A DNA stretch of 62,764 nt, taken from IMG/VR virus record IMGVR_UViG_2516143071_000006; one strand, written 5' to 3'. Below are positions 34,484 through 46,833 of this stretch, in pieces. The position numbers were made by a program, and so were the translations under genes. Numbering within the stretch: position 1 is the stretch's first letter; each line of letters begins with the position of its first letter. This stretch comes from a virus (lineage: Duplodnaviria; Heunggongvirae; Uroviricota; Caudoviricetes). The notes beneath the pieces are model-generated. The model saw only the letters and a list, made by a program, of their open reading frames with translations. It made no database searches and was not told the DNA's origin.

Positions 34484-35270
34484 CCAGTCTCCCCGAATTA
34501 CTCATTTCATGCAGCGATGACACGATGTCACTGACAGGCGTAACAACGCCCCGACGCTGGCTGGTCAGAATATCGGTTTCCGCTCTGAGTTTATCTCTGG
34601 CAGCGTTGGTTCTTTCCCGGTCAGCACGAAGTTTTGGTGCTGTTTCAGCCAGAACGTCCAGCGTCAGCAATGAGCGTTCAATTGACTCGATACGGGCAAT
34701 ATTCCGGTCAAGGGCCTGTTCAGCTTTGAGTATTTTGTCGTAAAGAGCAACGCGGGTTTCCACGTCAGTTGCCTCTTCCAGGTCGGCGAACATCCCTTTA
34801 AGTGCCTTAGTTACTGAAAGTGCGCGGGCCCGGGTGAACACCAGTTCATCGAACAGCACCATGTCGGACGCATCATCCATGAGGTTATCTGCCTCAAGAT
34901 ACTTCGCATATCCACGGTGTCTTACGGCGTGGGTGTTTCGCTGAGAAAAAGCGTTTGAAGGTGGTAAAAGTCGGGAACCACGAATCCGTTTCGTTTCTGC
35001 CGAATTTGCGCAGTTTTTTTCAGAGTTTTTTGCGCATTTTTCATCGCCGGAACCCGCGTCATTGCAGGGTTCTTCATCTGAGATGTCATGATCGATTTCA
35101 TGATCGGTTTTATGATCAATTTCATGATCGATTTTGCCCATTTTTATACGGGTTCTGGCGGTGTTGTAATTAATCTTTTTCTTCCGGCACCAGTCCAGTA
35201 ATGTTATTCCCGTTTCGGCATGTTCGCGTCGGAATGCCTGCTCCAGCTTTTTCCAGTCCAGCTTTGCCAT
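34464..35270 (-). CDS. Terminase small subunit (putative)
   Basis: 268-aa ORF upstream of TerL; HTH-like N-terminus; contains a DHEIDH tandem repeat. Confidence 0.55.
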   Translation of the reverse strand: MAKLDWKKLEQAFRREHAETGITLLDWCRKKKINYNTARTRIKMGKIDHEIDHKTDHEIDHDISDEEPCNDAGSGDEKCAKNSEKNCANSAETKRIRGSRLLPPSNAFSQRNTHAVRHRGYAKYLEADNLMDDASDMVLFDELVFTRARALSVTKALKGMFADLEEATDVETRVALYDKILKAEQALDRNIARIESIERSLLTLDVLAETAPKLRADRERTNAARDKLRAETDILTSQRRGVVTPVSDIVSSLHEMSNSGRLDDIPEE

Positions 35271-35562
35271 GTCACTTTCTGACGTCCTGTGTTAAAAACT
35301 GATGCATAATGACCGCTGTGATTTTTCAGATTTCACACAGCAGCACCATATTTGATCGATATTTGCACAATGCGGTTGTTTTATCCGGTTTCTTCCACCA
35401 CCGCACCGGACAGGCGGCTTCGCGGGAAATCGCTCCCATCTCGTGAAAAATGAGAAAACCCGGTGTGCATCGTTTTTGATTATCCCCGCACACTCACGCA
35501 GATAAGGTGGCTGCAGTCTCTGTTAATGCGGGAATACGGCGACGATACGGCGCATGGCTATG

Positions 35563-36114
35563 TCAGGCTGAAATGCCTTTATCAAATCCGGGTAACGCAA
35601 TCTGCCCCTGCTGCTCCAGCCTGTCCAGCCTTGCCAGCAACTGAGGCTTCTTCACCCTGCCCCAGCGATTGAGCAAACGACCTGACATACTGGCGACATC
35701 TTTCTCTTTCATGTACTCCAGCATTACAGCGTTGCGCTCCGCCTCCAGATTCGCCAGACCTTGCTGAATAAGCTCAGCCATCCAGTTGAAAGCCTGAATG
35801 TACGCTTCCTTAAAGGTCATAGCAGCCTTCCCCGTAAAACCAAATACCAACATCGTCCAACCGTCTTTTGTCATTCGATATATGGGCTGGGGTTTACCGT
35901 TCTGTAACTCATTGTTTTCATAGCAAAGCGCAAAATTGCGCTCTGCAAATTCTTTTGAGCATTGTTGAACAACGGCTCTTGTTTTCCGCAATACATCTTT
36001 GTGTTCTTTGCCAAATGCTACGGCAACCTTTCGGGTATCCGTCACCGGCTCGTTGCCTGTCACAAAAACAAGATCTCGAAAATCGATGCCGTTAACGATA
36101 GTTGGATAATTCAT
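35563..36114 (-). CDS. Rha-family phage regulatory protein
   Basis: MNYPTIVNGIDFRDLVFVTGNEPVTDTRKVAVAFGKEHKDVLR N-terminus. Confidence 0.65.
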   Translation of the reverse strand: MNYPTIVNGIDFRDLVFVTGNEPVTDTRKVAVAFGKEHKDVLRKTRAVVQQCSKEFAERNFALCYENNELQNGKPQPIYRMTKDGWTMLVFGFTGKAAMTFKEAYIQAFNWMAELIQQGLANLEAERNAVMLEYMKEKDVASMSGRLLNRWGRVKKPQLLARLDRLEQQGQIALPGFDKGISA

Positions 36115-36316
36115 CAGTGCACACCTTTTAGTGATGAACCTTGTCACACAGGATTCCGGCCCACAGAAAGGCACCGATCACCAAACCGGCATCCTCAAGG
36201 GTCATCCTGAAAGGTTCTGTGTTCATAAGTCGCGCGTGTGAAGCGCGTTTACTGCGGACATAAAAAAGCCCCGTATCGCGAGGCTCATTAAATTGACTTT
36301 GTGATTTGCAAAAAAA

Positions 36317-36745
36317 TTATTTCAGGCATTGCGTCCTGATGTATTCCTGCAGGTAGTTAACCTGCGCAGTTATCTTGTCGATTCCACTTCTGAGACGGTA
36401 ATAATTGAGTTCAGCATCTGCTGTAAGTCCTGGGCTTTCTCCATCGCCCATGCTGCTGGCTCCGGTCGTTGACTTTGCACAGGTGGCGGCGACTTGCAGG
36501 CGCTTACGCCCAGCAGAAACATCAGCACGGAGACTTTCGATAGTCGCATTAGCATCAGCAAGCTCCTTTGTGTATCTGGCGTCAAGTTCTGCTACATCAC
36601 GTTGCCGCTTCTGCATATCTGCGATGATGGATGTGGCTTTATCGCGCTGCTCTTTGTAAGCGATGGCGTTATCACGGTAATGATTCAGCCCCAGACTAAG
36701 CGCACCACAGACCACCAGCAGAATAACGGTAAACGCGGAAAGCAT
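36317..36745 (-). CDS. Rz: Rz i-spanin
   Basis: N-terminal TM helix then NHYRDNAIAYKEQRDK...YTKELADA, closely resembling lambda Rz; start could be the upstream GTG. Confidence 0.75.
   Translation of the reverse strand: MLSAFTVILLVVCGALSLGLNHYRDNAIAYKEQRDKATSIIADMQKRQRDVAELDARYTKELADANATIESLRADVSAGRKRLQVAATCAKSTTGASSMGDGESPGLTADAELNYYRLRSGIDKITAQVNYLQEYIRTQCLK
36370..36555 (-). CDS. Rz1: Rz1 o-spanin lipoprotein, embedded in Rz in another frame
   Basis: Signal plus lipobox (LLGVSAC) followed by a Pro-rich stretch (KSPPPVQSQRPEPAAW). Confidence 0.55.
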   Translation of the reverse strand: MLMRLSKVSVLMFLLGVSACKSPPPVQSQRPEPAAWAMEKAQDLQQMLNSIITVSEVESTR

Positions 36746-36905
36746 TCGGTTTATGCTCACCCCACCAGCCCTGCCGAAGTCAACGCCATCCAGTTTATGG
36801 AAAGAAAAAGAACAACCAGCATTAGTGAAAATGAAATACCGACGATTACACAAAGGCCCTTCGCCAGCGTTATGAGTTTATCCGATATCATTAGCCACCA
36901 CTCCA

Positions 36906-37475
36906 TCAATCCGCCTTTGTTATTTTCCCTTTGCCTGTATCAGCCAGGACAAAATCAATCAGCAGATTCGCTTCGTTTATCAATGTGCGGATTTTTGATA
37001 CATGCGCGGCTTTAACCTGTTTCCACTCATTCAGCCCGGTAGCAAACACACTGGCAATGTTTTTATCCCGTTTCATGTCAGCGCAGGCCTGATTGAGTTC
37101 TTCCATCACACTCATTCGACGGGGATTAACGACACCCCCCTTCGTCCAGTATTCATAGAGAACATCGTCGCACTCTTCCTGATACTGGATTACCTTGTCG
37201 CGGATTTCGGGTTTTACTTTGTTGGGATTGATGGTTTGTAACCAGCCTGCAAGTTTTCGAAGTGGCAGGGACACCATATTGCGTCGTTTCCCATCCTCAG
37301 CAACCATAACGATTTCCGTTATAGTTGACGCAAAACGCTGTCTTAACTTAGCCAACTGTGATTGCCAGGCCAGCCCCATCCCCGCAACGACAGGTTTCAT
37401 GGGAACGTATGGCTCACCGTTATGGTTAACCACATAAAGAGAATCGCCGTGAAACGGCACGGTCATCATATTCAT
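36906..37475 (-). CDS. Phage antirepressor-like protein (P22 antirepressor N-terminal type)
   Basis: MTVPFHGDSLYVVNHNGEPYVPMKPVVAGMGLAWQSQ motif; sits between R and Rz. Confidence 0.55.
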   Translation of the reverse strand: MNMMTVPFHGDSLYVVNHNGEPYVPMKPVVAGMGLAWQSQLAKLRQRFASTITEIVMVAEDGKRRNMVSLPLRKLAGWLQTINPNKVKPEIRDKVIQYQEECDDVLYEYWTKGGVVNPRRMSVMEELNQACADMKRDKNIASVFATGLNEWKQVKAAHVSKIRTLINEANLLIDFVLADTGKGKITKAD

Positions 37476-37748
37476 CGGTTATTTCCTTTTAGTGATGAAC
37501 CCTGCGCACAGGAATAACCAGCCCAAAGAGGGTTAACCAGACCACTGCCGGTTATCCACCAGGGCTCATCCTGAAAGGTTCTTTGGTTTATTTACGCTTG
37601 TGCGAAGCGCAGAAATGACAAAGACACCATTACGGTGCCTCAGCGTGAAACAATCTTCCTGACTTTATTCACTTGCATTTTGCCAGTTCGCAGGATTTCG
37701 TGTTATCCGTCCGCGTGAGCAAACGTCATTTTTCAGCAAAATATTCTG

Positions 37749-38282
37749 CTACCTGTCGATACCCCAGCATGCCAGCGCACTCTCCTGGTCGCGACGGGAT
37801 ACCTGACCGTAGCAATTATTTGAGCGGATACGGCAGTCTCTGCCACCGTCCTTAATCCACCAGCGAATCGCTTCACACGCTCCCCTGCGATCGCCTGCAT
37901 TAATTCGTTTATAAAACGTCGACGGGAAACACTTACCGGGGCCAATGTTGTAAGGACAGAATGACGCGATCCCCGCTTTCTGAGGTTCGGTCAGTGGCAC
38001 TCTGATGTTTTTCGCCACCCATGCCAGCGCCTTATCACGTTCAATGGCGTTAACCTGGTCGCATTTTTCCTTCGACAACTTCATGCCGGGGACGACAAGC
38101 TTACCATCCACCTGGGTGGCACCACGGCAGATGGTCCAGATACCCACACCATCACGGTATGCCGTGGTGTGGTTGCCTTCCTTTTCATCCAGAAACTGGT
38201 CGAGGATTTCAGGCGCAGAAGCACCTGCGGCAATCAGCGCCAGAACGGCAGCCGATAAACCATAGCGGAGTTTCCTGCTCAT
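37749..38282 (-). CDS. R: Endolysin R, lysozyme with an N-terminal signal-anchor-release helix
   Basis: Hydrophobic N-terminus (LSAAVLALIAAGASA) then lysozyme core (EGNHTTAYRDGVGIWTICRG). Confidence 0.8.
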   Translation of the reverse strand: MSRKLRYGLSAAVLALIAAGASAPEILDQFLDEKEGNHTTAYRDGVGIWTICRGATQVDGKLVVPGMKLSKEKCDQVNAIERDKALAWVAKNIRVPLTEPQKAGIASFCPYNIGPGKCFPSTFYKRINAGDRRGACEAIRWWIKDGGRDCRIRSNNCYGQVSRRDQESALACWGIDR

Positions 38283-38286
38283 CAGC

Positions 38287-38502
38287 TTACTCTCCCCGTG
38301 CCGCCTTACGCCTGTCCTCTCTGATTTTGAAATACAGGTTCGTCAGGTACGTCAGCAGACCAAACAGCAGACTCCCCAGCACGCCTATTGCCGCCCACTG
38401 AGACGGGGAAACCCTGTCCAGCAACTGCAGGAACCAGTAGCCCGTTCCCACCGCTGACGTGGTGTATGACACACCTGTTGTGATTTTTTCCATCTGGTAC
38501 AT
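38287..38502 (-). CDS. S: Holin S (class II, dual-start)
   Basis: MYQMEK dual-start motif, two TM helices, charged C-terminus [13 protein letters not shown]. Confidence 0.75.
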
Positions 38503-38578
38503 ACCCCGTCTCCCGCAATCCGGAAGCTCACAACAATATAAAGACCACCGGCACACACCGATGGTCCCTTGCGCATGC

Positions 38579-38824
38579 TTACATCATCATGTCGCTGTCA
38601 GGTGTAGGTTCACCGCCATCTGAAGCACTCCCGTCACCCGCGATACCTTCCGGCTCAGGAACCGCTGGTACGCCCAGCAGCTCATCCAGAATGGCATCCA
38701 CTTCTGCATCAAGACGCGACTCAAGGTTCTGGCGAAGTTTCTGTTTCAGTGCGCTCCGGACTTCTTCAGAGCGCAGGACTTCCTTCACTGCCTCTGCAGT
38801 GACCAGGGATGTGATTTCTGACAT
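38579..38824 (-). CDS. Hypothetical small acidic protein
   Basis: ORF 38579..38986 with an internal ATG at 38824 ([16 protein letters not shown]...). Confidence 0.35.
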
Positions 38825-38849
38825 GGGATTTTCTCGCTGAAAGGGGTTG

Positions 38850-39032
38850 TTAAGGAGTAACGGGCTCTTCGGGTTTGCTTCCGGCTGACTGACTGGCGCT
38901 GATTTTCTCAGCGGCCCTTTTATCAATCTGCCTGCACCAGAAATCGCGCACAGCCCTGTACCCACCCGAAAGAAGATACAGCACACAGACCGCCGTACAG
39001 AAGTACAGCATCACCTGATGAATAAATGTCAT
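38850..39032 (-). CDS. Hypothetical small membrane protein
   Basis: 60-aa ORF with one TM helix. Confidence 0.3.
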   Translation of the reverse strand: MTFIHQVMLYFCTAVCVLYLLSGGYRAVRDFWCRQIDKRAAEKISASQSAGSKPEEPVTP

Positions 39033-39170
39033 AATTTCTTACCGTTATGGTTGACAATGAGAATTGTTTTCATTTAAAAACCAATGTACGAAAGCATCTT
39101 TTCTTTACATTCTCCATTGGGATTACCTCCGCCAGCTTCCATTCCTGCCGCTGGCGGCTTTTTTTAGCAA

Positions 39171-41081
39171 TTATGCGGCTGCTCCAGCTTTGTTTGCTTT
39201 AACTTCCACCGTATCAATAAGTACAGGGTAGGTTTCTGCACTACCTGTAATATCCGTAATGACAAACCTGTTGAGTCCATTAGCAGTATTGGCCCATTTC
39301 ACCAGGTCAAACGCCTGTCCATCCACACCATCGAGCACCGGAGTAACATTAATGCTGTTACTGCCCTTAAATTTAAATGCAAGCGTATGCCAGTCATGGT
39401 CGAATGCGCCAAACGTGCCAAGTTCTTTTTGTTGATTAACTGTATGATGGTATGCAACATTAATACTGGCTTTATCTGTCTGGACAAAGAAAGAACTCAG
39501 ATGGCCTTCACCACCCTCACCCGGCCATTCCGCTATTCGCCAGTACAAACCAAAGGCATACTTGTTTCTGGTTGTCTCAAGATTGACGTTTTCGGGGATT
39601 TTAAACCGGACAGCAATTTCCCCGCCTTTTTCCAGTAAAAGTTTTGCCTTGTCTGCAGCAATATCACAGTACATTGACCAGGATTTCGCGCTGTTATTTT
39701 TCTCAATTCGCAGAGCTTTATTGCCGCTGTCATCAACCAGTGTGCGCCTGCCATACACACCGTCCCAGCCATAGGGTTTCAGCTGATTGTCTGTAGCTTT
39801 TTTGGCATCGTAAAAAATTACAGACTCTGAGGTGGTAACCGGTCTGTCTGGAACAACCACCCCGGCAGTACCATTAACAAACGCAGAAGACTTACCCGCG
39901 CAGCTCAGAATCGCAGTTGCCAGACGGTCGGAAATAATCCCACGGCGAGCCCATGAACTGAAATGGCTCGCCCTGTCCTGTGACGTCCAGGTGGCTGAGC
40001 TGTCACGCCATTTCGAACCGTAATAACCGATACCCGGAATGTCCGGGTCTTCTTCCGGTTTGTTCGTCGGCACATTCACCCCGTTCTCATCGGTCATGAA
40101 CGGTACGAAATGGATATTCTTTTCCGTTTTATTTTTATAGCTGCCGTACACCGTCTGGTACGTGGATTCGTTCTTCTGCTTCCAGAAATACGTCGTGTCC
40201 CCGCATATCCAGGGAACACCGCCAGCAGAGCCACCGACGCACTGGCCTGCCATATCCGCCAGGTCTGCACGGAATTTATCAACCAGCGCACCAAACTGTG
40301 CGGCATGATTTGCCGGCGTACCGCCAAAATCAAATTCCCCCTGCATCCACACCACGGCAAACAGCACATTTTTCGGGTTCTTCTCCAGTGCCGCTTTTGT
40401 TCGACCGATAAGGTCCTTATACAGCGGCTTGTCCACACCCCAGCGGGTTGAATTCTCCGAGGCGCCACTCGCGTCACTGTATGTGCCATCAGCTCCGGTG
40501 GTGAACGCTGAACCACCACGACAGCACGGAACCAGCAGAATGCCCGCATTCGCCGGTATAAACGGCAGCAGTTTTTTGGCGATATGCAGCCCCTGCCCCA
40601 CGGTTCCGTACTGCCCCTTTGACAGGTCCGCTTTCGGATGGTTAAGACGGCTCATGTCCTGCACATCATGCAGACAATGGTCCGCCGGAATGATGTCGTT
40701 ATATTTGCATGCTGCACCGCCCGGTGTCACCGTACTGCGACGCGCTAACTGTTTAATACGTGGATCAGGGCTGTCGAATGTATCCGGTAATGGCAGTCCC
40801 TCACCGTATGACATACCATTGGACTGACCAGCAAGCGCGATCACATAGTAATATTCTGGCGCAACAGAAGGCGCTGAGGTCGTCGGACGGTTGCCTGGCT
40901 CCTCTGGTGATGAGATGCTCCCCTCACTCACAACTGGCTGGATGAACTCCGCACCATAACCAGCTGTCGAAATCAGCGCACTACCATAAGGCTGCCACCC
41001 TTCCTTCAGTTTTTGAGTTATTCGTTTCGCAAGGTCTGACGGCGACGCCGCCCTGACAACATCATAGTGTTTAAATGCCAT
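39171..41081 (-). CDS. nanS: NanS-p-type sialate O-acetylesterase (DUF1737 N-terminal domain plus SGNH esterase)
   Basis: MAFKHYDVVRAASPSDLAKRITQKLKEGWQPYG N-terminus and GQSNGMSYG esterase motif; located between Q and S. Confidence 0.8.
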   Translation of the reverse strand: MAFKHYDVVRAASPSDLAKRITQKLKEGWQPYGSALISTAGYGAEFIQPVVSEGSISSPEEPGNRPTTSAPSVAPEYYYVIALAGQSNGMSYGEGLPLPDTFDSPDPRIKQLARRSTVTPGGAACKYNDIIPADHCLHDVQDMSRLNHPKADLSKGQYGTVGQGLHIAKKLLPFIPANAGILLVPCCRGGSAFTTGADGTYSDASGASENSTRWGVDKPLYKDLIGRTKAALEKNPKNVLFAVVWMQGEFDFGGTPANHAAQFGALVDKFRADLADMAGQCVGGSAGGVPWICGDTTYFWKQKNESTYQTVYGSYKNKTEKNIHFVPFMTDENGVNVPTNKPEEDPDIPGIGYYGSKWRDSSATWTSQDRASHFSSWARRGIISDRLATAILSCAGKSSAFVNGTAGVVVPDRPVTTSESVIFYDAKKATDNQLKPYGWDGVYGRRTLVDDSGNKALRIEKNNSAKSWSMYCDIAADKAKLLLEKGGEIAVRFKIPENVNLETTRNKYAFGLYWRIAEWPGEGGEGHLSSFFVQTDKASINVAYHHTVNQQKELGTFGAFDHDWHTLAFKFKGSNSINVTPVLDGVDGQAFDLVKWANTANGLNRFVITDITGSAETYPVLIDTVEVKANKAGAAA

Positions 41082-41274
41082 GAATCCTCCCGGCCGGGAT
41101 AATATTGTGAGTAAAATAAGGAGCGGGCTGAAGTCCGGAAGTTACAGGACAATGGCAGAAGGGAGACTACAGCCCGCAATTCGAAAAAGGTCGCGCAGTT
41201 GCGCAGAGTGATTACTATGGGGTATTATTCGCCAGCTGAAATATTACTTCACGTTTCATTGTTCATTCCTTGCC

Positions 41275-41304
41275 GCCCGCGTCTCCCAGCGCGGGCTTTT
41301 TTGT
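41275..41304 (+). terminator. Hairpin plus T-run in the Q-nanS gap, followed by a second hairpin at 41315..41332
   Basis: cccgcgtctcccagcgcggg then cttttttg. Confidence 0.35.
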
Positions 41305-41565
41305 CCATAAGAAAGCCCCTCCGGAGAGGGGCTGGAGAGTGGCGCTATGTGCCATTGCATGGTGCCGGGTGCCTCCCGGTGAGTTCAGCCCGGTGCCACT
41401 AAACCCGCGTCATTCTCGTTTTGATAATCAGAGATTATACCGTCACCAGTCGCCCCTCCGCTCAGGGGGATTCACCATGCAGTTTTTTCTAACAAATTCT
41501 CATCCGGGCAGACAACATTCAACTGACTTAATTGTGAGGTATGTAACATTCCCGTTGAACGGATA

Positions 41566-41597
41566 CAAAAAAAGCCAGCCACCAGGGGAGGCTGGCA
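41566..41597 (-). terminator. Late-operon terminator candidate (tR'-like)
   Basis: Minus-strand gccagcctcccctggtggctggc followed by uuuuuuug. Confidence 0.45.
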
Positions 41598-41775
41598 AAC
41601 TCGTAGAGCAAAATGCTGTTACGCAAACTTCGTTACAGGGTTATCCTGCAATACTTAAAATATACAATATTTAGAAAACTAATAGTGCCATATGAGATTT
41701 TTAAGATTTTGTTATTAATTGCGGTCGTACCTTCCTTTCTGTGTACTTTCCGTATAGCTCACAGGATTCTGGGTA

Positions 41776-41800
41776 CAAAAAAACCCGCGCATCGGCGGGT
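41776..41800 (-). terminator. Second intrinsic terminator candidate about 50 nt downstream of the Q stop
   Basis: Minus-strand cccgccgatgcgcggg followed by uuuuuuu. Confidence 0.4.
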
Positions 41801-41846
41801 TCGGCTGCGTGGCAATGTAACCACTCTTATCATGATATGCAGATTT

Positions 41847-42380
41847 TTACGATCGTAAACTATTTTTTCGCTGATAAAATACAGAGCTTCTCCCTCCCGG
41901 CAATTCACGCTCAACATACCGATCCATCTCAAGCCTCACTCCCAGCATCATCAGCATGCCTTCAACAATCCCCTCCGCTTTGTGAAGGCGTTTACCTATA
42001 CAGGTGTCAGAGCACCCATGTTTCCGTGCCAGCGCCATGAACGTCTCCCCCAACACGTAGTAATCAACCAGCAAGTCATGCAGATCGCGATTGTTCCGGT
42101 AAAGGCGGGCTATGCACCCGCATATCACCATCGCATCATCGTCACAGCACTGTGGACGTGATTTTACTTTTTCGGGGATCAGTCCCTTAAATCCGGCAGC
42201 AATGGGCGACCATGTAACATCCTCATAGTTATTTACCGCCCATGCCCCCCAGCGCTCAAGAACCTGCCGGATATCACGCATCAGTATCTTTACCCCATCC
42301 GCGATGAACCATAAGGACGCCATTGACGACGGCGTGCTTTTTCGCATCTTTATCATCAATGTATTTTCTGACTGTAGCAC
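41847..42380 (-). CDS. Q: Late antiterminator Q (non-lambda type); true start probably an internal Met near 42281
   Basis: Position after the nin genes and before the late terminators and lysis genes; Cys-rich region; overlaps ninH end. Confidence 0.65.
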
Positions 42381-42471
42381 GATTGCAGTTCAGTATTCTG
42401 GCGACTTCTGTCTGATTTCCCCTGGTGCAGATCAGTAATTCAGGTATCGTTTGAATTTTAGCATTCATCAA
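42274..42471 (-). CDS. ninH: NinH
   Basis: [38 protein letters not shown]...VLMVHRGW resembles lambda NinH. Confidence 0.8.
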
Positions 42472-42830
42472 ATGTTCTCCAGTTCGGTGATTTTTATCCC
42501 CACTCTACCGCCAGGCACTTTCACGCCGCGAATTACGCGAATGTCATCGAATTGCTCGTCGTCGTCCGCAAATCCGGCGTGGATAAGAGAGTCGAGTAAA
42601 CCTTTCAGGATGTTATCGAGGTCGCGACGGCGGGAATCTGGTGGTTCAGCAATAATTGTGATGCGAAGTCGTGATTTAGTGAAAATGTCTAATCTGAGTT
42701 GCCGGATGATTTGCTGTACGTCTTTTCGGTATTTCTGGCCTTTATCGCTGATGTAGTACTGGCTTCCCCGTCTTCGCCAGTAGGTATTCACCGTCGGCGG
42801 CCAGGGAAGCACAAACTCATATTCATTCAT
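42468..42830 (-). CDS. rusA: RusA Holliday-junction resolvase
   Basis: LPWPP...RRRDLDN motifs. Confidence 0.85.
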   Translation of the reverse strand: MNEYEFVLPWPPTVNTYWRRRGSQYYISDKGQKYRKDVQQIIRQLRLDIFTKSRLRITIIAEPPDSRRRDLDNILKGLLDSLIHAGFADDDEQFDDIRVIRGVKVPGGRVGIKITELENI

Positions 42831-43120
42831 GACTTAATCTTCCCCTCCTTCAGCAATATCGCCTGCGTCCTGATCACGCCTTCCAGGTGGTAAAGTCTGG
42901 CGTCGTTGTTGTCGAGAATTCGGGTGCGTCGGTCGATCTCCGCGTGGCAGTCACTACAAGCCCATGCACCGATCAGGTCGTCAGGCTTCATTCCCGTTCC
43001 GCAAATTCCAGCCATCCGGTAATGTGCCAGAACTGTCGTTTCAGGATTGCCATTGCATACGCCGTAAATCCGTACCTGGCATTCTCTGCCGCGCGCTTCT
43101 TTGCGTAGGTTTGCCATCAT
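42827..43120 (-). CDS. YbcO-like (DUF1364) nin-region protein
   Basis: RGRECQVRIYGVCNGNPETTVLAHYR...CSDCHAEIDRR. Confidence 0.7.
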   Translation of the reverse strand: MMANLRKEARGRECQVRIYGVCNGNPETTVLAHYRMAGICGTGMKPDDLIGAWACSDCHAEIDRRTRILDNNDARLYHLEGVIRTQAILLKEGKIKS

Positions 43121-43328
43121 CTTATTCCTCGTACATTGAACTATCCGGAGTGACTATTAAATCTTGCACGACGTCTGAGCCACCGGACATCCCACAGGTG
43201 AGACGTATAATTGAAGGTTTTTACATCAGATTCGTTGGGGATTGGCCTGGGTTTATTTCGGGAGCGTTTCGTTGGAAGGTAATTGCAGTTTTCACAGACT
43301 ATATCGGTAATGCTTCGTCGCTGTCGTC

Positions 43329-43739
43329 TCATTCATACCTCCTGTCGGTAAATCTGACACCCTGCTCCACAGCCCAGGAAGTTGTGTACTCAATCAGGCT
43401 TGCCATACGCTTCACGCTCATCTGCGCACTGCTTTCGCGGATATTGACGTATTCACCTTCAAGACCTGGCAAAACATCAGCTTCCTGTTTTGTAGCCACG
43501 GCATGACCGCTGATTAACAAAACTTTCCACTGTTCTGGTTTTAGCCATCTGCCGCACCACTGAACCTGTCGGGAGATATCAGCGACCATCGCGTGAAATT
43601 TGGCATTTTGATCGAGATTCCGCTTGTAATCGGTGATGCGGATCGTAACGGGTTTGTCTTTATCGAGAGTTGTTGCAAGGATGGCGTTAATGGCGAATTG
43701 TTGCTGCTGCTTACTTCGGAGGAAGATAGTCTGGTTCAT
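43329..43739 (-). CDS. ninB: NinB recombination protein
   Basis: [25 protein letters not shown] resembles lambda NinB. Confidence 0.8.
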
Positions 43740-43793
43740 TATTCCCTCTCACTGGATTTTCCCAACAAAAAAGGAGCCGAAGCTCCTTTAGTT

Positions 43794-44465
43794 TCAGAAT
43801 TCAAATTGTCTTGCCCGCAGGCTTTTCAGCATTGGCATGGCCCGCTGGATAATGGAACTTGACATGTCGAGACGTGTTACCTCCCTTAGTAGCGCGTCTC
43901 TGTTCTTCGTCACCATGTAGATGGTCTCAAACGCAATGTCATACAGCTTGTTCGTGTATGAGGAGTTCAGCTCTTTCATAATGGGATACAGGTGTTTGCT
44001 GAGGTCCTGGGCTTTTTCCATCCAGAGCTGCATGTAGCAAAGGAGGATGATTTCTTCGGCTGTGAATTGTGGCTGAATCTGCGGCTGCTGTTCGGTTGGT
44101 GCTGTTTTTCCCTGGCTGAAATAGCAGTCTTCCAGTTTTTCGAATACCTCCCACGCCTGATCAGTTTCGAGCATTTTTGCGTGACGGGCTGCGCCGCGTT
44201 CTGTCCATAGGATGAGGGAGCGAACGTTACGGGCAATTTTCACAGAGTAGTTAAAAGCTACTCTGTGCTTGAACTCACGTAAAGTTTCACCTTCAAGTTT
44301 GAAGAAGTGTTTTTCCTCAATGAAACGACCTTTGTTTTCGTGGTGATTCTGGCGAATACGAATAGCTTCTGTGCCGTAAAGGTGCGCCAAAAGTTCGGTA
44401 GTGATAACGGGGATCTGCTTGTAAGTAATCGTGGAGAGTGTTTCAACAGAAACTTGAGTTGTCAT
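43794..44465 (-). CDS. Phage antirepressor (ORF6N/KilA-N-type N-terminus), C-terminus shared with 2929..3564
   Basis: ITYKQIPVITTELLAHLYGTEAIRIRQNHHENKGRF motif; shared QPQFTAEEIILLCYMQLWMEKAQ...RARQFEF tail. Confidence 0.7.
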   Translation of the reverse strand: MTTQVSVETLSTITYKQIPVITTELLAHLYGTEAIRIRQNHHENKGRFIEEKHFFKLEGETLREFKHRVAFNYSVKIARNVRSLILWTERGAARHAKMLETDQAWEVFEKLEDCYFSQGKTAPTEQQPQIQPQFTAEEIILLCYMQLWMEKAQDLSKHLYPIMKELNSSYTNKLYDIAFETIYMVTKNRDALLREVTRLDMSSSIIQRAMPMLKSLRARQFEF

Positions 44466-44809
44466 AATGACGCCCTCGAGTGGTTTCTAAACTATCACCA
44501 CCGTCAGGTTCCTAATCATCGGGTGGCGAGACGTACAGGGTTAGGAACTACCGGGAAACCAACCGGCGAGCTTTTCAGCTCCCCTATACGCCCCACCATA
44601 ATTCAGATGTGCGTGTGCATACGACAATAAAAAACACGCTCGCGGCGTGTCTCTGTCGCGGTTTCTATCCGGGGTTCCTAATCCCGACGCCAGATTTTGC
44701 TGGCGTGCGATGAATATAATCCCGGATACGCGACGTTGTCAAACTGATGGCATTGCAGATCCCTACGCAATGTAACACTATGTGTTATACATTAATAACG
44801 GAACAAAAA

Positions 44810-45171: not shown

Positions 45172-45489
45172 ATGAGTAAAAATTACCGCAGTGATGCGCT
45201 TGCATCCGTACATGAAATGATGGAATCGCTTCATGATATCGGCGCAGTAACGAAACAGACTATGCGAGAATTCGATGAAACTTGTCTCCAGCCAGCGCCG
45301 GTAATGTCTCCGGAAAGGATCCGTGCACTGCGCGAACGAGAGCATCTGTCTCAACCTGTTTTTGCCAGATACCTCAACGTCAGTAAAAACCTGATATCAG
45401 ACTGGGAACGTGGTGTAAAACGGCCGGGAGGTGCCGCTCTTCGCCTTCTTTCAGTCGTAGAGAAAAACGGAATCCAGGTAATATCATGA
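45172..45489 (+). CDS. HTH (XRE-type) antitoxin-like protein, HigA-like partner of the upstream toxin
   Basis: 105 aa, C-terminal HTH (LSQPVFARYLNVSKNLISDWERG); immediately downstream of the toxin reading frame. Confidence 0.65.
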   Translation: MSKNYRSDALASVHEMMESLHDIGAVTKQTMREFDETCLQPAPVMSPERIRALREREHLSQPVFARYLNVSKNLISDWERGVKRPGGAALRLLSVVEKNGIQVIS

Positions 45490-45499
45490 TACTCCAATA

Positions 45500-45530
45500 C
45501 AACAAAACCCGCCGAAGCGGGTTTTCATTA
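45500..45530. terminator. Bidirectional terminator between convergent genes
   Basis: acccgccgaagcgggt hairpin flanked by A-run and T-run. Confidence 0.5.
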
Positions 45531-45539
45531 GAAGCACCT

Positions 45540-46025
45540 TTAGTTTTGCTGTTCTATTTTAAGCTTGATAGTTTCATACAAAACAATAGTTGCGCCTGTT
45601 TTACATAATTCCCGGCTGTCATACGCACGAGACCAATAACACAACCAGTTCTCGAGATCTTCTCGAGTATAGGTTTTGCAGGCCAGTCCCTCTGCCATTT
45701 CCACGATTTCATCGCCTGGTGCTGTTAACTCATAGCCATTCAACAACAAGAAGACATAACCAGCCATCATAGCTGTTCGTTTGTTTGCATTAGCAAATGG
45801 ATGATTCTGAATCAGACTTTCAATCAATACTGATGCCAGTACAAACATGTCATTAGTCTGTTCATACCATCGAACCATGCTGGGACGAGACTGAGAAGAA
45901 CTTAAATTATCAACACTCAGCACACTAACAGGTTCATCTGGTGTTTGAAGCTCAATTAAAAGGCGATTAATTTCGGTAAGATCATCAAACGAAAGGTAGT
46001 GCACTCCTTCAACAATCTCAGCCAT
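45540..46025 (-). CDS. doc: Fic/Doc-family toxin
   Basis: HPFANANKRTA motif (HPFxxGNKR type). Confidence 0.7.
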   Translation of the reverse strand: MAEIVEGVHYLSFDDLTEINRLLIELQTPDEPVSVLSVDNLSSSQSRPSMVRWYEQTNDMFVLASVLIESLIQNHPFANANKRTAMMAGYVFLLLNGYELTAPGDEIVEMAEGLACKTYTREDLENWLCYWSRAYDSRELCKTGATIVLYETIKLKIEQQN

Positions 46026-46043
46026 AGAGCACAATACCCATCA

Positions 46044-46268
46044 TTACACTTTTGAAAGTTCTTCCATTGCCTTCTCGTAACGAGAAAAACCGAAATCGAA
46101 AGCATTTTTCACCTGCTCACGATGAGTGCAATTTTCATCGATAGCCGGGCGCGGAGCTGCCACAACGCTTTTATCGCGAGGGGGAATAGTCAATCGCGGG
46201 TGTTTTTTTAGTGCGTAGCTCATTGGGTGTACCCTTACTTCTCCGTCCTGTTCTTTAACAAAAATCAA
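46044..46268 (-). CDS. Putative antitoxin for the Doc-like toxin
   Basis: Small ORF 10 nt upstream of the toxin on the same strand; no family assigned. Confidence 0.4.
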   Translation of the reverse strand: MIFVKEQDGEVRVHPMSYALKKHPRLTIPPRDKSVVAAPRPAIDENCTHREQVKNAFDFGFSRYEKAMEELSKV

Positions 46269-46341
46269 GTCAATACAAAATTAGTCAGGCTAATGTTGTT
46301 AGCATAGCCTAATACCAATCGTATTCACAACCACAGTAAGT

Positions 46342-46364
46342 GAAAAAACCCGCCGAAGCGGGTT
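46342..46364 (-). terminator. Intrinsic terminator downstream of hok
   Basis: Minus-strand acccgcttcggcgggt followed by uuuuuuc. Confidence 0.5.
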
Positions 46365-46432
46365 AAGTGCGGGTGCGTTGAGGATGCCTGACACATCAGA
46401 GGTGGCGAGGGATTTCTCCCTCGCCGGGTCTC

Positions 46433-46588
46433 TTACTCCTCAGGTTCGTAAGCTGTGAAGACAGCAACCTCCGTCTGACCGGTTCGGATTCGTACCTCGC
46501 AGAGGTCTTTCCTCGTTACCAGTGCCGTCACTACGACGGTAATACAGATGACGATCAGGGCGACTAACATCGCCTTTTGCTGCTTCAT
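46433..46588 (-). CDS. hok: Hok-family type I toxin (HokD/RelF-like); an in-frame upstream extension to 46645 is mok-like
   Basis: MKQQKAMLVALIVICITVVVTALVTRKDLCEVRIRTGQTEVAVFTAYEPEE is near-identical to HokD/RelF as remembered. Confidence 0.8.
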   Translation of the reverse strand: MKQQKAMLVALIVICITVVVTALVTRKDLCEVRIRTGQTEVAVFTAYEPEE

Positions 46589-46833
46589 AGCCTGCTTCTC
46601 CTTGCCTTTCGGCGCGTAAGAGGCTAACCTACATGTGTCTAGCATGAAATTGGCCTCAGATTAATGTTAGGCGTCTTGCAGGACGCGTAATGTTAACTGG
46701 GGTTTTTCTCTGTCTGCCTTACGGTGGCATGCCCGAGGCAGACAGCCTCAAGCACCCGCAGCAATTCTACTTAACTCTCGCTTTACCGCAAACCGTTTTT
46801 ACCCGATATGGGAATTCCCATATCGTAATGAAT

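Follow-up and report, generated by a model that had tools for sequence, protein, structure and literature searches.

Sy et al. [quoted passage not shown] StxS binds Hfq and activates rpoS, and it arose as a by-product of antitermination control (PMC7547250). A review describes stxAB as "bookended" by StxS and an sRNA dyad, and counts eight or more Sakai prophages with such a dyad between the late promoter and the lysis genes (PMC7873438).

As summarized in that review, the published dyads EcOnc27/AsxR, EcOnc06/AgvB and EcOnc42 (Tree et al. 2014, via PMC7873438) each form a convergent pair ahead of nanS-p and the lysis genes. EcOnc42 (identical with EcOnc21/08) of a Stx1 phage was confirmed by Northern blot and Hfq-CRAC, although no target is known in EHEC (PMC7873438). 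In EPEC, the homologue of EHEC EcOnc08/21/42 is E2348C_1409.E2348C_1408.IGR (coordinates in the supplement to PMC8550237). This RNA is Hfq-bound, and RIL-seq recovered cfa, dppA and tir as its targets, with 767 chimeras involving the cfa 5'UTR (PMC8550237). Its target motif is GGCAAGG (PMC8550237 supplement). The other member of the pair also has a literature: STnc100 has been placed downstream of stx2B (PMC12370729), and PasD/STnc100 upstream of an esterase gene (bioRxiv 10.64898/2026.05.13.724894).

The esterase in question is NanS-p. The five NanS-p enzymes of E. coli O104:H4 are all reported to be active esterases (PMC8065619), and nanS-p is also reported from prophages without stx (Saile et al. 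2016, 2018, cited in PMC8065619 and PMC10462455).

A 933W-like prophage without toxin or tRNA cargo

The DNA considered here, hereafter the window, is a stretch of 62,764 nucleotides from a member of the Caudoviricetes (IMG/VR record IMGVR_UViG_2516143071_000006). Its interval 41082..41846, the gap between Q and nanS-p, very probably serves as control region for the late operon of a complete 933W-like (Sepvirinae-type) prophage, one that carries neither toxin nor tRNA cargo. Sequence anatomy, homologies, breakpoints and distribution are established here. The locus is real but ordinary, being made up of a homologue of StxS, a cargo slot that is empty, and an sRNA dyad of a known kind.

The first-pass annotation, made from the sequence alone, had read a Q to nanS-p to lysis order, in a Stx-phage-like late layout with the toxin and tRNA slot empty. 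Each element is indeed where it had been placed, on the minus strand, and from Q through the second terminator (42400..41565) the identity of the window is 96% to 933W and 94% to VT1-Sakai. The gene order of 933W/Sp5 (Stx2a) and VT1-Sakai/Sp15 (Stx1a) is Q-PR'-qut-t1-tR'-[tRNA]-stxAB-dyad-nanS-p-S-R, and that of the window is the same except for the cargo. Both phages also agree with the window in having two terminators, in the geometry of StxS, and in a holin of P21 type followed by a lysozyme. The 933W-type late backbone is present in all its parts (Q933, PR', qut, two terminators, nanS-p, P21-type holin), whereas the stxA and stxB genes that a Stx-converting phage has between tR' and nanS-p and lysis are missing.

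The gap is 100% identical to DNA of E. coli O104:H4 (2011C-3493, C227-11 and others), ML35 and several other strains. Identity of the whole window with O104:H4 2011C-3493 was considered and rejected: the window is 99.3-99.6% identical to the O104:H4 prophage adjoining ynfEF, except that the segment 35018..37664 is replaced. That prophage extends from integrase to tail genes. Its capsid protein is of the N4-gp56 type and it also encodes a giant protein with LPD38, both of which we take to be typical of 933W-like podoviruses.

Within the gap of the identical O104:H4 DNA, PGAP annotates no feature. This 765-bp interval is thus without PGAP annotation though it is home to three sRNA genes whose homologues have experimental support.

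Q, PR' and the StxS homologue

The elements of the upstream half of the region are as follows.

42281..41847, minus strand: late antiterminator Q (933W type, 144 aa, 435 nt; PF06530, 170 bits)
41859..41832, minus strand: late promoter PR' (-35 TTTACG, 41859-41854; -10 TATCAT, 41837-41832; promoter scan)
41824..41567, minus strand: StxS homologue (StxS_L, PR' to tR', 258 nt; from homology and geometry)
~41818-41811, minus strand: qut box (mapped from the 933W annotation)
41802..41774, minus strand: t1, first hairpin and U-run (hairpin 41802..41781; terminator scan; about +23 to +50 of the PR' transcript)
41598..41567, minus strand: late terminator tR' (stem 41598..41579, U-run 41573..41567; terminator scan)

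The Q protein has 98.6% amino-acid identity to that of 933W, and PGAP calls the same 435-nt gene in the identical O104:H4 DNA. The PR' sequence is invariant in an alignment with 933W, VT1-Sakai, phi296 and a Stx2a phage. At the homologous bases, the GenBank records of 933W and VT1-Sakai mark pR', qut and a pair of "possible rho-independent terminators", the second of which corresponds by homology to tR' in both phages.

If a length of 258 nt is measured from the final U of tR' (41567), the probable PR' start site falls at ~41824. The whole PR'-qut-t1-tR' unit (41859..41567) is 96% identical to that of 933W, and within the StxS_L homologue 249 of the 258 nt match 933W and 243 of 258 match VT1-Sakai. 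The GU|AUU site for RNase E lies at 41653/41652, which is +173, exactly as published. The processed 3' part is accordingly predicted to be 41652..41567. From the RNase E site onward the alignment shows three differences from 933W, two of them bases in the loop of the terminator and the third an additional T in its U-run. In sequence geometry, then, the copy agrees with StxS (a predicted start at PR', an end at tR', a length of 258 nt, and GU|AUU at +173). Its predicted fold has a z-score of -2.4.

Two minus-strand intrinsic terminators had been noted after Q. Hairpins at 41802..41781 and 41598..41579, each followed by a T-run, bear this out, and because both the 258-nt/+173 geometry and the homology match, they are t1 and tR' of the StxS homologue. 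The surrounding region is rich in such elements, with seven terminator-like sites in 40800..42500 against 1.7 +/- 1.3 in shuffled sequences. Hairpin t1 looks strong yet lies inside the 258-nt StxS_L, an awkward fit with such a product. Its role is puzzling because the published StxS_L RNA ends at +258 (PMC7547250).

The placement between PR' and tR', the length of 258 nt and the GU|AUU at +173 are those of the StxS of Sy et al. (2020). Unlike published StxS, however, the window homologue resides in a prophage that has no toxin to repress, so only a trans function of the rpoS type could apply, if the likeness extends to function. A weak match of the 3' part of StxS, with its terminator, to the Rfam family Qrr (E ~0.5-0.6) was rejected.

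The empty slot

Homology to 933W, phi296 and VT1-Sakai ends after TCCGT, just past tR', and restarts at AATGTTA. Between these two points the window contains only 14 bp, and the breakpoints from blastn and from alignments delimit the following slot.

41564..41551 (14 bp), minus strand: empty moron slot, with TCCGT on its left, TCAACGGG within, and AATGTTA on its right

Other members of the group fill the same position differently.

Window: junction only, 14 bp
IMG/VR contig L017: methyltransferase remnant, 157 bp
phi296, TL-2011a and PPwrbA (stx-negative): methyltransferase remnant, pT and three tRNAs, 469 bp
VT1-Sakai: stx1AB, 1,490 bp
933W: pT, ileZ-argN-argO, terminator and stx2AB, 1,786 bp

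The left and right boundaries are identical across all five states. In Stx2 phages the slot was expected to hold tRNAs and stxAB, and 933W carries ileZ-argN-argO and stx2AB there. Its pT-ileZ-argN-argO-stx2AB cargo (1,786 bp), or the stx1AB of VT1-Sakai (1,490 bp), is replaced in the window by 14 bp.

The flanks, by contrast, are conserved. BLAST comparison with the Q-stx-nanS regions of Stx phages, which the first-pass annotation had proposed as a check, gives 90-96% flank identity up to the slot. In VT1-Sakai, the DNA that begins 41 bp after stx1B is 90% identical to 41550..41029 of the window, and in a Stx2a phage the DNA that follows stx2B is 92.6% identical to 41537..41000. The best full-length matches are the stx-negative vB_EcoP_phi296, TL-2011a and PPwrbA prophages, with 95.9% identity over 98% of the gap. 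These phi296-type phages have Q, the StxS region, the dyad and nanS-p in the same positions, and no stx; they differ in carrying the 469-bp insert (methyltransferase remnant, pT, three tRNAs) exactly where the window has its 14 bp.

The slot retains no trace of any cargo. ARAGORN detects no tRNA anywhere in the window (0 in its whole length). In tblastn searches of the window with Stx1A/B and Stx2A/B, the best match has E = 0.14 and none of the weak matches lies in the gap. Searches with blastn, using the slot DNA of 933W, VT1-Sakai and phi296, return only 15-19-nt chance matches, all outside the gap. The slot thus contains no piece of a tRNA, of pT, of the methyltransferase fragment or of stx, and the earlier impression that nothing Stx-like or tRNA-like is visible here survives these searches.

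Distribution and origin of the empty allele

A 101-bp probe that spans the junction is found in 88 of 5,426 complete E. coli genomes and in 0 of 50,697 phage records. Among the genomes that carry it are O104:H4 and ML35, as well as one O103 and one O157:H7 strain. For IMG/VR, an invariant 24-mer of the nanS-p leader served as anchor and collected 120 loci. The 5' motif of STnc100 lies 294-334 bp from the anchor in 115 of the 120, and nearly all loci that bear this motif also have the antisense terminator. Cargo was counted only where the upstream sequence reached 2.5 kb or more (79 loci), scoring content within 3 kb upstream, with the following result.

stx present: 11/79
tRNAs without stx: 50/79
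neither stx nor tRNA: 18/79

Most IMG/VR loci with the module are stx-free. The arrangement without stx and tRNA is already documented and common, and presents no anomaly. The first-pass annotation had overlooked that it is both.

The tR' loop allele CCCCTGGTGG is common to all empty-slot loci examined. This speaks for a single allele that spread horizontally, and against a series of recent deletions. The window-type spacing between tR' and STnc100 recurs exactly in ~10 IMG/VR loci.

Slot sizes of 14, 157, 469, 1,490 and 1,786 bp with identical boundaries form the basis for an exchange-site reading. The 14-bp junction could be a site of cassette exchange between tR' and the STnc100 promoter region, the empty allele being the pre-cargo state to which methyltransferase remnant, tRNAs and stx were added stepwise. 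This is offered tentatively, as a possibility to which we give well under even weight. If it were true, StxS and the sRNA dyad would be generic host-tuning modules of 933W-like prophages rather than toxin-associated regulators, and in hosts that make no toxin, for instance ML35, their effects would fall on RpoS, cfa and dppA. Contig L017, with a methylase remnant alone in its slot, hints at stepwise insertion.

The window prophage could instead be a recent derivative of a Stx-converting phage that deleted its tRNA-stx cassette, as opposed to a lineage that lacked the cargo. We consider this unlikely. A Stx-phage ancestry would account for a virion module of the Stx-phage type and for flanks that are 90-96% identical to Stx1 and Stx2 phages up to the very edge of the slot, but the supposed deletion leaves no trace: tRNA, pT, methyltransferase fragment and stx are all absent. 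The O104:H4 host lineage and its relatives also harbour a Stx2a phage; however, the same 14-bp junction and CCCCTGGTGG loop are found in 88 diverse genomes and ~10 IMG/VR contigs, and this spread points to one old, horizontally spread allele, not to a recent loss in the strain. Whether its cargo was deleted or never inserted, the locus is a clean natural empty-slot reference allele that helps delimit the stx/tRNA moron, and it offers a setting in which to study the roles of StxS and the sRNA dyad in toxin-free hosts. Beyond annotation, its importance is slight.

The sRNA dyad

Downstream of tR', the first-pass annotation had seen about 480 bp of structured non-coding DNA. The stretch measures ~484 bp (41565..41082) and holds no convincing gene for a protein, but the "paired hairpins" noted in the region had been left unnamed: they belong to three described sRNA genes, the StxS homologue, STnc100 and an EcOnc42-type antisense RNA. 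The latter two constitute the dyad.

41508..41303, minus strand: STnc100-family sRNA gene, sense partner (Rfam RF02076)
41333..41314, minus strand: STnc100 terminator
41122..41302, plus strand: antisense sRNA gene, EcOnc42/21/08 type (92.3% identity over 181 nt to an EPEC sRNA)
41075..41103, plus strand: candidate promoter of the antisense sRNA, ATGCCA-17-GATAAT (weak consensus match)
41275..41302, plus strand: antisense sRNA terminator (stem 41275..41296, U-run 41297..41302; terminator scan)

The Rfam model for STnc100 matches over positions 1-206 of 206 with 165.1 bits, against a gathering threshold of 47 (E = 3e-38). The likely start of the RNA is ~41480, where the 5' end of EPEC PasD2, GCATGGTGAATCC, aligns; the fold has a z-score of -2.9. 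Promoter scan and manual reading find only a weak consensus match for its promoter. The TATAAT that had been remarked on in this DNA is present, at 41433..41428 (minus strand), but nothing marks it out as a working promoter: it sits in a variable loop of STnc100, occurs in 14 of 42 distinct homologous sequences, and has no -35.

PasD is a relative of the STnc100 copy, and EcOnc27/sRNA103 occupies the position of this copy in Sp5. Searches with blastn for PasA, PasC and PasD2 found no match, and PasD2 and the STnc100 copy share the 5' motif only. Nor was a homologue of PasA or PasC detectable downstream of nanS-p; a plus-strand hairpin there is similar in position, but its sequence is unconvincing and it was rejected as PasA/PasC.

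The antisense sRNA gene is convergent with STnc100 and abuts it (41302/41303), and the RNA is complementary to the 5' leader of nanS-p. Over 181 nt it has 92.3% identity to E2348C_1409.E2348C_1408.IGR from the EPEC RIL-seq set. The seed CCUUGCC occupies 41268..41274, directly before the terminator. The RNA thus combines the homology, the CCUUGCC seed and the intrinsic terminator that mark the EcOnc42/21/08 type. It also has the position characteristic of AsxR and AgvB, that of an antisense dyad partner between an STnc100-type RNA and nanS-p.

The antisense partner comes in different alleles, EcOnc42 in the window and Sp15, and AsxR in 933W. In 933W, AsxR (RF02703, 88 bits) lies on the same strand at the homologous position, likewise abutting STnc100. 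The EcOnc42-type and AsxR-type alleles have their first ~85 nt in common. However, the Rfam models for AsxR (RF02703) and AgvB (RF02702) give no match at E <= 1 in 38000..44000, so the window RNA joins the common 5' half to another 3' allele, and the function of AsxR or AgvB cannot be transferred to it. Its 3' module, seed and terminator, differs from both.

Dyad and nanS-p leader of the window are 90-93% identical to those of VT1-Sakai and a Stx2a phage, whereas identity to 933W across the dyad region is 98% over the last ~200 bp and 79% over 41537..41356.

The fold of the antisense RNA is no better than that of shuffled sequences (z = -1.4), and covariation is near absent among the 31 sequences, which hold one double-sided change and are too similar to each other. 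A weak match to Rfam "anti-hemB" (E ~0.5-0.6) proved to be the plus-strand terminator and was rejected. Given its full complementarity to the nanS-p leader, the antisense RNA may also have an effect in cis on the late transcript.

A model for late transcription

Transcription, processing and targets at this locus can be modelled on the near-identical published homologues. By homology, constitutive transcription from PR' in the lysogen would halt at tR' and yield a 258-nt RNA. RNase E would trim this RNA to a stable, Hfq-binding sRNA of the StxS type, which in EHEC activates rpoS translation. Each of the two dyad RNAs would start at a weak promoter of its own and stop at its own terminator, and the CCUUGCC seed of the antisense RNA would pair with host mRNAs (cfa, dppA and tir in EPEC RIL-seq). 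Upon induction, lambdoid biology suggests that Q would load at qut. The Q-modified polymerase would then pass t1, tR', the STnc100 terminator and a small hairpin at 41205..41192, and this readthrough would express nanS-p, holin, endolysin and virion genes.

Could the hairpins instead be purely cis-acting, a terminator stack that silences nanS-p and lysis without Q, whose RNAs are by-products without trans function? We judge this quite improbable. Four sense-strand terminator-like hairpins do stand ahead of nanS-p, but a plus-strand terminator is useless to the late operon. The published origin of StxS as an antitermination by-product fits a role confined to cis, yet the StxS-rpoS interaction has been validated (PMC7547250). 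Similarly, the lack of a known EcOnc42 target in EHEC (PMC7873438) must be set against near-identical homologues that bind Hfq and form many specific mRNA chimeras (767 with the cfa 5'UTR in EPEC). Cis-acting terminators and trans-acting sRNAs are in any case not mutually exclusive.

That the gap encodes small proteins rather than RNAs, for example through an 81-aa ORF (41613..41858, plus strand) or a 134-aa ORF (41270..41674), is extremely improbable: these ORFs match phrog_17306 and phrog_28474, respectively, but both are families of unknown function, and since PHROG families are built from predicted phage proteins, ORFs called by machine could be among their members; automatic annotation of phi296 and of Stx1 phages does produce ORFs of this kind, whereas PGAP annotates no gene in the gap; the 81-aa ORF is open in five of five relatives compared, but its visible changes among them are amino-acid replacements (synonymous ones uncounted); the 134-aa ORF spans the 14-bp junction and hence cannot exist in cargo-bearing relatives; and the DNA of the gap is already accounted for by RNAs with experimental support. 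Also rejected was a mini-ORF of 14 aa at 41259..41215 (minus strand): it has a Shine-Dalgarno sequence, but its start codon is missing in VT1-Sakai and EPEC PP6.

NanS-p and the lysis genes

Under the model of sRNA-producing terminators and Q-dependent readthrough, the first genes to be reached are these.

41081..39171, minus strand: nanS-p, prophage sialate O-acetylesterase (636 aa; DUF1737, SASA and DUF6645 domains)
39032..38850, minus strand: DUF1378 gene
38824..38579, minus strand: DUF826 gene
38502..38287, minus strand: P21-type holin
38282..37749, minus strand: lysozyme

The four genes after nanS-p come from the Pfam scan and from PGAP of the near-identical O104:H4 prophage. The lysis genes had been expected downstream of a 636-aa NanS-p-type esterase, and both parts of that expectation agree with the Pfam results, which give a P21-type holin, a lysozyme, and the three-domain NanS-p architecture (N-terminal PF08410, catalytic SASA domain PF03629, carbohydrate-binding-like C-terminal PF20350).

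NanS-p matches the solved structure of NanS (3PT5) with E = 3.5e-118, and the C-terminal domain of NanS-p (6YP6) with E = 7e-42. In the alignment with 3PT5, Ser87 (part of the GQSN block) and His373 fall on its conserved Ser and His, which we take to be the catalytic Ser19 and His301 of NanS. The first-pass annotation had allowed that the catalytic SGNH residues might be missing; with Ser87 and His373 in place, NanS-p is, as far as its sequence can tell, a sialate O-acetylesterase with an intact active site. In three-domain architecture and catalytic Ser/His it resembles the NanS-p esterases of O104:H4 and EDL933, with nothing notable different. The protein is identical to that encoded at the same locus in E. 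coli O104:H4 2011C-3493, which belongs to the O104:H4 set reported as active, and only 74% identical to its counterpart in 933W and 67% to that in VT1-Sakai.

Possible cargo and seed exchange around the sRNA dyad

The tR' late terminator and the STnc100 sRNA gene bound a slot that carries tRNA or stx cargo in relatives. One locus, L017 (IMG/VR UViG_2548876698_000001), holds a 157-bp insert at this position. The insert consists of nothing but the DNA-methyltransferase-gene remnant that 933W and phi296 also have; pT, tRNAs, and stx are all absent from it. This intermediate state of the slot is consistent with cargo having been gained or lost step by step between boundaries that stay fixed.

The antisense RNA of the dyad, which converges on STnc100, was compared between the window copy (41122-41302, plus strand) and 42 distinct homologues. 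These fall into two allele classes that have the first ~85 nt in common and carry unrelated 3' seed and terminator modules:

EcOnc42 type: 181 nt, CCUUGCC seed
AsxR type: 166 nt

It looks as though sRNA seeds have been swapped as modules at a fixed locus.

The interval from the stop codon of nanS-p to the DUF1378 gene contains a hairpin resembling a terminator, CTGCCGCTGGCGG and then T7 (39145-39165, plus strand). Its position and orientation are those of the antisense sRNAs PasA and PasC (EcOnc51/52); the similarity to either is weak.

The StxS_L region

StxS_L, the PR'-to-tR' transcript, contains an early hairpin, t1 (41774-41802, minus strand), that resembles a strong intrinsic terminator and lies just 23-50 nt into the PR' transcript. 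The published end of StxS_L is at +258, beyond t1 (PMC7547250). The hairpin may be a partial terminator, or else part of the Q-loading region.

One ORF runs antisense to StxS_L:

41613-41858, plus strand: 81-aa ORF, phrog_17306 (a family without an assigned function)

It is open throughout in all five sequences (the window, 933W, VT1-Sakai, phi296, and a Stx2a phage), and the visible differences between relatives are amino-acid replacements, synonymous changes being left aside. The ORF is probably an artefact of ORF calling.

The nin region

Gathering-level Rfam matches to two RNAs stand immediately upstream of an antirepressor-like gene:

44629-44706, minus strand: isrK match (69 bits)
44519-44603, minus strand: C4 antisense RNA match (66 bits)
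43794-44465, minus strand: antirepressor-like gene with an ORF6N domain

This arrangement resembles the RNA-controlled ant modules of the P1/Gifsy type.

The nin region also holds a toxin-antitoxin cluster (45172-46757), identified from Rfam and from the PGAP annotation of near-identical O104:H4 DNA:

45172-45489, plus strand: HTH protein gene
45540-46034, minus strand: Doc-like toxin gene
46583-46757: sok RNA (Rfam, 110 bits), adjoining hokD
within 45172-46757: RelE/ParE toxin gene

Divergence from the O104:H4 prophage

The window departs from the prophage of O104:H4 2011C-3493 in a single segment, 35018-37664, and therefore comes from a strain or prophage variant that is related to that one yet distinct from it. 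Within this segment, between the endolysin and Rz genes, lies the following:

36906-37475, minus strand: 933W-like ant gene
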